DNA of 64,000 nucleotides. It comes from Kiritimatiellia bacterium. GTDB taxonomy: Bacteria > Verrucomicrobiota > Kiritimatiellia > RFP12 > UBA1067. The notes under the pieces were generated by a model. That model saw nothing but the letters and a program-made list of their open reading frames with translations, was not told where the DNA came from and searched no databases. Position numbers and translations under genes: made by a program. Shown here piece by piece: positions 57,470 to 57,718 of this stretch (positions are counted from its first letter, which is position 1; each line of letters starts with the position of its first letter). Where the stretch lies: contig JBMNFY010000017.1 of NCBI GenBank assembly GCA_050949565.1, positions 480,001 to 544,000 on the forward strand, read 5' to 3'.

Positions 57470-57718
57470 TTACTCCGCCGCTTCAGCGACGGGGAACACG
57501 CTGACGATCTTGCCTTCTTTCTGGAATTTCACGACGCCGTCGATCAGCGCGAACAGGGTGAAATCACGTCCACAGCCGACATTCTCGCCGGGATGGATCT
57601 TGGTTCCACGCTGGCGGGTAATGATCGACCCCGCCCGAATAACCTGTCCATCATAGCGCTTGACGCCCAAACGTTTGGCGTTACTGTCACGCCCGTTTCT
57701 TGATGCTGCACCTGCCAT
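57470..57718 (-). CDS. rpmA: 50S ribosomal protein L27 (N-terminus lacks HKK)
   Basis: [41 protein letters not shown]. Confidence 0.97.

Follow-up and report, generated by a model that had tools for sequence, protein, structure and literature searches.

A shortened N-terminal tail of ribosomal protein bL27 in an order of Kiritimatiellia

The bL27 protein encoded in the window, which is the whole 64,000-nucleotide stretch of DNA analyzed here, has an N-terminal tail four residues shorter than that of canonical members of its family. Comparison of genome sequences confirmed that a short bL27 tail is a real, inherited trait of almost the whole order to which the host bacterium belongs (hereafter the host order, within the host class). 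No other protein element lies as close to the bacterial peptidyl-transferase center (PTC) as the N-terminal tip of bL27, whose role is debated among catalysis, tRNA stabilization and gatekeeping against tmRNA-SmpB. We regard it as probable that the short tail is an order-wide inherited variant of bL27 in which the contact made by the tip has been lost and is tolerated.

The features of the window that define the gene and its surroundings are as follows.

57470-57718, minus strand: rpmA, ribosomal protein bL27, 82 aa, with the ATG start at 57718-57716 (open reading frame and PF01016)
57698-57715, minus strand: codons 2-7 of rpmA (A G A A S R), the entire tail between Met1 and NGRDS, for which the canonical length is 10 residues (read from the sequence)
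57683-57697, minus strand: codons 8-12 of rpmA, which encode NGRDS; this conserved segment comes directly after the tail and is kept in relatives (read from the sequence)
57722-57724, minus strand: in-frame TGA, separated from the rpmA ATG by a single GTT codon (read from the sequence)
57727-57732, minus strand: GAGGAG, Shine-Dalgarno-like, 8 nt before the rpmA ATG (read from the sequence)
57736-58050, minus strand: rplU, ribosomal protein bL21, directly upstream of rpmA (PF00829, E 1.4e-35)
56205-57362, minus strand: obg GTPase, downstream of rpmA (PF01018, E 1.5e-58, and PF01926)

In a Pfam profile search, the rpmA product matched PF01016 with 116.2 bits (E 6.6e-34; gathering cut-off 20.5). 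Its residues 2-74 correspond to positions 5-79 of the 79 profile positions, and the first four positions are unmatched. The best PDB match has an E value of 3.2e-31. Against solved 85-residue bL27 chains, query residues 2-70 correspond to chain residues 6-74 and query residues 5-72 to chain residues 9-76, giving a constant offset of four. The NGRDS segment occupies residues 8-12, and residues 5-72 align to the solved chains with E values of about 1e-30. The tail, MAGAASR, contains neither His nor Lys, and its only basic residue is the Arg adjoining NGRDS. The conserved tip (A/S)(H/S/T)KK, which lies 10 residues before the Asn of NGRDS, is absent. The reading frame, the profile start at position 5 and the constant offset all agree with the initial annotation, which had described an L27 devoid of the N-terminal HKK. 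Because the conserved tip marks a typical member of the family and is not part of the Pfam definition, the window protein is still a bL27. Its mature N-terminus after removal of Met is probably AGAASR.

A longer N-terminus is excluded by the TGA that stands in frame one codon before the ATG. The translation across this region is L N R G V stop V M, with no HKK encoded in frame 5' of the rpmA ATG. The GAGGAG ribosome-binding site and the in-frame TGA that had been reported for this gene were confirmed at 57732-57727 and 57724-57722, respectively, and GAGGAG is placed in the same way before rpmA at two loci of the same genus (L010 and L012). An alternative start or read-through was ruled out by the TGA and by relatives with long open upstream frames (e.g. 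L009), which contain no HKK. A 118-residue L27 match at another locus, L136, is an alignment extending into the upstream open frame, and the L136 protein itself is canonical. The rplU stop codon TAA (57738-57736) is followed by a 17-nt spacer without a prp-like gene before rpmA. The L21 and Obg domains flank rpmA, in accordance with the canonical rplU-rpmA-obgE locus noted before. The same gene order was found in 86 of 102 related loci; the other 16 have an unreadable tail, or the stretch fetched for them contains no Obg match longer than 250 aa. Directly upstream of the rplU operon, at 58175-60976 on the minus strand of the window, is a 933-aa open reading frame with an N-terminal signal-like sequence.

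The window genome (G000; 4.66 Mb) is an assembly of 21 contigs that is 92% complete, which leaves some room for an artefact: the start codon might be misassigned, bases might have been deleted in assembly, or a full-length paralog might lie in the missing 8% of the genome. The 801-base stretch at 57300-58100 occurs in 20 public runs from 14 studies with a word share of 0.96-1.00, and six of these runs are RNA (metatranscriptomic) libraries. Contigs from runs X3, X18, X9 and X16, each from a different study, span the 801 bases completely, without a single difference or gap. These four runs were compared as assembled contigs and comprise two DNA and two RNA libraries; the RNA-library runs come from other studies, the two DNA runs possibly include the source sample of the window genome, and contigs in an RNA library are not proof of transcription. 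A 12-bp assembly deletion, which had been named as a possible refutation, was ruled out by this identity across four studies. The other refutation that had been named, a full-length paralog elsewhere in the genome, was not borne out either, since the PF01016 search of the 92%-complete genome gave one match above the cut-off, corresponding to a single-copy rpmA. Four further matches, with E 0.13-1.04, were weak; they are located within open frames of 283-376 aa. An L27 match was present in all 90 high-quality genomes of the host order, and the tail was short in all 60 other genomes of the order in which it was read directly. The only host-order genome with two L27 matches (G273, 7% contamination) has both beginning at profile position 6. 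We consider an artefact extremely improbable, and it is effectively excluded as the source of the short tail.

Relatives of the same genus, family and order carry the same trait. An L27 match was found in 40 of 41 such genomes, the one exception being 83% complete, and 39 of the 40 matches begin at profile position 5 or later. A further locus (L035), from the set of many phyla described below, encodes an L27 protein 100% identical to that of the window. In a wider sample of the host order, 144 of 146 genomes gave 145 L27 matches, which begin at position 1 (one match), position 3 (four), position 4 (one) or at least position 5 (139). The match start is only a proxy for tail length, because the matches of L178 and L189-L192 begin at profile positions 3-4 and their tails are short when read. 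Tails were compared as extracted from the loci with a phmmer-based reading. The canonical tail in relatives is MAHKKSGGSAKNGRDS, with 11 residues before the Asn of NGRDS. In the 60 host-order genomes read directly (G030, discussed below, left out), 5-8 residues, including Met1, precede this Asn, so that the tails are 3-6 residues shorter. The earlier suggestion of a lineage with a naturally shortened L27 is thus upheld by every genome of this set. The tails of the individual families are as follows.

f1, the family of the window genome: one type ending [A/S]ARNGRDS; MATSASARNGRDS; MAS[S/T]SGRNGRDS
f2: MAASSSARNGRDS
f3 and f5: MATSASARNGRDS
f4: MARKNGVNGRDS, MARKKSVNNRDS
f6: MARKGKGVNNRDS
f8: MGRKSNGVNNRDS
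f9: MAGSSHKTNGRDS, MARKGHKNNGRDS, MARKTRKTNGRDS, MASKAHKTNGRDS
f10: MARKKTGINGRNS, MSKSHQGVNGRDS, MGRKKSGVNGRNS
f11: MAGSTGNGRDS, MAAGSNGRDS
f12: MAGSKARNGRDS, MAVSSSARNGRDS

Basic tip residues (MARKK.., MSKSH..) are kept in f4, f6, f8, f9 and f10. They are lost in f1, f2, f3, f5, f11 and most of f12, and f1 is among the families in which the tip consists solely of Ala, Gly, Ser and Thr. What the tail sequences have in common across the host order is the shorter tail, and some families, f1 among them, have additionally lost the basic tip. The "clean four-residue deletion" of the initial annotation therefore describes the window genome correctly and does not extend to the order, in which the shortening varies and five families keep a basic tip. 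The tips rich in Arg and Lys on short tails suggest that the tip is still functional in those families.

A tree was calculated from L21, Obg and the core of L27 with the tail excluded (86 taxa, 500 columns, FastTree with LG+gamma). It took 86 of the 102 loci, and the 16 without an Obg match longer than 250 aa or with an unreadable tail were dropped. The 40 tips of the host order form one clade with an SH-like support of 0.999, and its earliest branches are f10 and f4, two families with a basic tip. A canonical tail was found in just one genome assigned to the host order, G030 (family f7; 76% complete, 4% contamination). Its locus (L006, G030:C166:1780-5001) lies outside the host-order clade, among the canonical-tail families f13, f50, f55 and f43. 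The G030 contig is either mis-binned or from a basal lineage, and the order-wide pattern holds both ways.

Within the host genus g1, the tail has either 7 or 8 residues, depending on a run of GCA (Ala) codons whose length differs by one. The length polymorphism of this run between L010, L012, L013, L018 and L022 and the window (57698-57715) is of the kind that replication slippage would give. The 29 distinct combinations of family and tail in the host order are composed only of A, S, G, R, K, T, V, N, H, Q and I, and none of these 29 tails contains an acidic, aromatic or proline residue. Together with the variation between 7 and 8 residues, this residue set points to a weak constraint on the exact length and sequence of the tail, and to continuing selection that keeps the segment flexible and its residues small, polar or basic.

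The globular domain and NGRDS are intact and rpmA lies in the usual rplU-rpmA-obg operon, and on these grounds the bL27 of the host order is almost certainly still seated at its usual site in the 50S subunit. By chain geometry alone, four residues of extended chain would span about 13-15 Å. The shortened tail would thus most likely stop at a clear distance from the tRNA 3' ends, where the canonical AHKK makes contact, and the ribosomes of the host order would translate without contact between the tip and tRNA. The roles proposed for the tip, namely stabilizing the tRNA ends and restraining tmRNA-SmpB, would then be dispensable or weakened in this order, possibly with no need for a specific compensation. 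The remaining tail may be a loosely constrained relic of small, polar or basic residues that still threads the narrow rRNA passage, without a precise job at its end.

It is conceivable, but in our judgment improbable, that the short tail still reaches the PTC, at least where the tip is basic. The slack of the Gly/Ser linker would then have been removed and the neutral tip of f1 would have arisen later, making this a milder change. The tails MARKKTGINGRNS, MARKGKGVNNRDS, MSKSHQGVNGRDS and the like in f4, f6, f8, f9 and f10 do resemble a canonical tip on a shorter linker, and the early branching of f10 and f4 fits this order of events. This explanation is difficult to reconcile with the window tail, which is four residues shorter and has no basic residue before the Arg adjoining NGRDS, or with the f11 tails, which are 5-6 residues shorter than canonical. 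The canonical tail length is kept in 77 of 80 L27 loci from many phyla, a set selected by tblastn for similarity to the query and not at random. This conservation speaks for a requirement of the full length if the tip is to take its normal position, and it makes the short tail of the window more than a chance departure. The three exceptions, which represent the host organism and two relatives, are L035 and L036 (Kiritimatiellia) and L044 (Lentisphaerae bacterium), whose tail is an f9 tail.

The preferred reading, a tolerated loss of the tip contact, has to be weighed against what has been published on tip function. A study from 2026 calls the tip almost invariant and co-conserved with tmRNA-SmpB, and proposes that bL27 keeps tmRNA-SmpB out of translating ribosomes (PMC13450312). 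In the same study, changing HKK to AAA lowered the EC50 of tmRNA-SmpB to less than 25% of wild type, and the AAA change as well as truncations of 2, 3, 5 or 6 residues made cells hypersensitive to trans-translation inhibitors (PMC13450312). As for catalysis, the initial annotation had stated that removal of the first residues impairs peptidyl transfer in E. coli. This statement is contested. In older E. coli assays, cited in PMC4647459, a tip cut by only three residues gave the peptidyl-transferase activity of ribosomes lacking L27. The rapid kinetics presented in that paper indicate in contrast that peptide-bond formation is independent of L27, with dipeptide rates of 90 per s both for L27 without residues 1-6 and for ribosomes without L27, compared with 110 per s for the wild type (PMC4647459). 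A dispensable tip plausibly fits these L27-independent kinetics; the E. coli truncations, with their effects on growth and inhibitor sensitivity, agree with it less well. Given the lowered peptidyl-transferase activity and the hypersensitivity of such truncations, a loss without cost would be surprising, and a compensation that escaped notice is quite possible.

Several known systems can be compared with the window bL27. The canonical protein in solved 70S structures shares its fold family, NGRDS, the rplU-rpmA-obg operon and the single copy, and differs in having the tail MAHKKSGGSAKNGRDS, of which the window protein lacks the first four residues after Met. The engineered tip-truncated forms of E. 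coli bL27 resemble it in that the PTC-proximal tip is lost and the rest is intact, the window tail corresponding to a four-residue truncation. Those forms are, however, laboratory mutants with phenotypes, whereas the window form is what an entire order carries as its wild-type protein, and it has long been stable. The phenotypes are a lower peptidyl-transferase activity (older assays), inhibitor hypersensitivity, and a lower tmRNA-SmpB EC50 (for AAA and for complete loss of bL27). Natural departures from AHKK occur in the spirochaete L27 proteins (ATSK in Borrelia and AR-K, one residue shorter, in Treponema pallidum; PMC9405229 Table 2). Going by that table, however, they keep a Lys and are nearly full length. 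The long L27 of Firmicutes and related groups is another lineage-specific variation of the N-terminus (PMC9405229). It differs in that its extension is cleaved by Prp to expose a canonical tip, whereas the window rpmA has neither an extension nor a prp gene; a Prp-type extension (about 9 or more residues plus a cleavage motif) was ruled out by the upstream stop and the 17-nt spacer. In archaea and eukaryotes, ribosomes already do without an L27 tip at the PTC: L27 is absent, and a loop of the uL16 proteins L10e (archaeal) and RPL10 (eukaryotic) occupies the place of its tail (PMC4647459).

The spirochaete tips are the closest case in print. No description of a naturally short-tailed bL27, in the host group or elsewhere, and no paper on L27 together with Kiritimatiell was found in the searched literature, which had subscription journals outside its scope; exceptions are possibly contained in figure S5 of PMC13450312. 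A whole order of free-living anaerobes in which the tip is lost or the tail is short, and in which tmRNA and SmpB are kept, amounts to a natural experiment. The ribosomes of the host order could be used to test the need for the tip in tRNA positioning, the causality of the co-conservation of bL27 and trans-translation, and PTC-proximal inhibitors that depend on the tail. The order also offers a graded natural deletion series, comprising a tip on a shorter linker, a neutral tip, and a tail shorter by 5-6 residues.

Since tmRNA and SmpB are kept, a gatekeeper model valid in general would predict interference in translation in the host order, barring some other change. The short tail may be real but compensated, by 23S rRNA outside the PTC core, by another ribosomal protein, or by tmRNA-SmpB or its expression. 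We hold this to be possible, although the less likely account. The E. coli truncation phenotypes speak for it (PMC4647459 and PMC13450312). The trans-translation machinery itself gave no candidate. The tmRNA of the window genome scores 175 bits across the full model and its SmpB covers profile positions 2-142 of 143; both are ordinary. SmpB was detected in 38 of 41 relatives, including all 22 of high quality, and the three genomes without a match are 62%, 86% and 87% complete. The retention of tmRNA and SmpB rules out loss of trans-translation as the reason for the loss of the tip. Elsewhere in the window genome, outside the window (G000:C17:1053136-1055410), four weak matches to the tmRNA model, each of 19.3 bits and 88 nt and exactly 729 nt apart, look like a tandem array of 729-nt units with one tRNA-like element each.

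An archaeal-type uL16 loop as a substitute for the tail was also ruled out. The uL16 of the window genome (136 aa) corresponds to PF00252 positions 1-132 of 132 with no insertion, and is thus bacterial from end to end, in contrast to L10e and RPL10. YebC is linked to the N-terminus of bL27m in mitochondria, as reported in PMC12856214. Balon is described as having a "bL27 trap" and as being restricted to about 20% of bacteria. The window genome contains both YebC and EF-P, so that a loss of either was ruled out. Two EF-P family genes lie outside the window (G000:C17:178311-178472 and G000:C8:261911-262069) in open frames of 203 and 201 aa, presumably EF-P and a paralog.

The 23S rRNA of three short-tail genomes (G000, G253 and G029) was aligned with those of five canonical-tail genomes of the host class and of E. 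coli K-12. The sequence from the window genome (L218, G000:C17:1170522-1173427) is located outside the window. We checked 18 positions that we take, by their E. coli numbering, to be the PTC core, and found no changed nucleotide at any of them, as all nine 23S sequences are identical there. At 29 other positions of the alignment, the three short-tail genomes share a fixed difference from the five canonical-tail genomes and E. coli. Among them are an A-to-G change at E. coli position 2468 and a pair of changes, G2048A/C2620U. The 29 differences, and in particular that at 2468, would be compatible with compensation, but since the short-tail genomes belong to a single clade, the differences are wholly inseparable from the effect of phylogeny, and they are leads only. 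Of the compensating changes that the initial annotation had envisaged in L16 or 23S rRNA, none was seen as an insertion in uL16 or at the 18 positions of the 23S PTC core. No candidate was found among tmRNA and SmpB either, though a compensating change may well exist.

A further argument for compensation comes from the rest of the host class. Outside the host order, most families of the class have a canonical tail, and several have changed tails, as listed below by the number of residues before the Asn (canonical 11).

f20: 9-10 residues
f21: 8-11 residues
f34: 9 residues
f39: 9 residues
f43, one genus: 10 residues
f44: 9 residues
f48: 9 residues
f52: 9 residues
f45: tail of full length with an altered tip

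The changed-tail genomes of f20 to f52 were chosen for their low scores and give no frequency, which we took instead from an evenly drawn sample of the phylum. In that sample, the L27 match starts at profile position 5 or later in 16 of 16 genomes of the host order and at position 3 or later in 4 of 32 from other orders of the host class, and it starts later than position 2 in 0 of 98 from other classes; no statistic was applied to these counts, because related genomes are not independent. A shortened or degraded tip therefore occurs throughout the host order and in at least eight other families of the host class, and not in the sampled other classes. The recurrent erosion within the class (f20, f21, f34, f39, one genus of f43, f44, f48 and f52, mostly with 8-10 residues), as opposed to its absence from the 98 genomes of other classes, is a hint of a permissive factor specific to the host class, instead of a tip that is simply dispensable. 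We tentatively raise the possibility, which we consider somewhat doubtful, that the tip has been eroded many times independently in the host class because a class-level change in the ribosome, in the handling of tRNA 3' ends or in trans-translation removes the need for it. If true, this change would be a natural suppressor of the requirement for the bL27 tail and would reveal what the tip is for. In other families of the host class, several L27 proteins (loci L154-L172) have a Cys near the N-terminus at otherwise conserved positions (e.g. ...KCNGRDS, ...GCNARDS and LGVKC[F/Y]).
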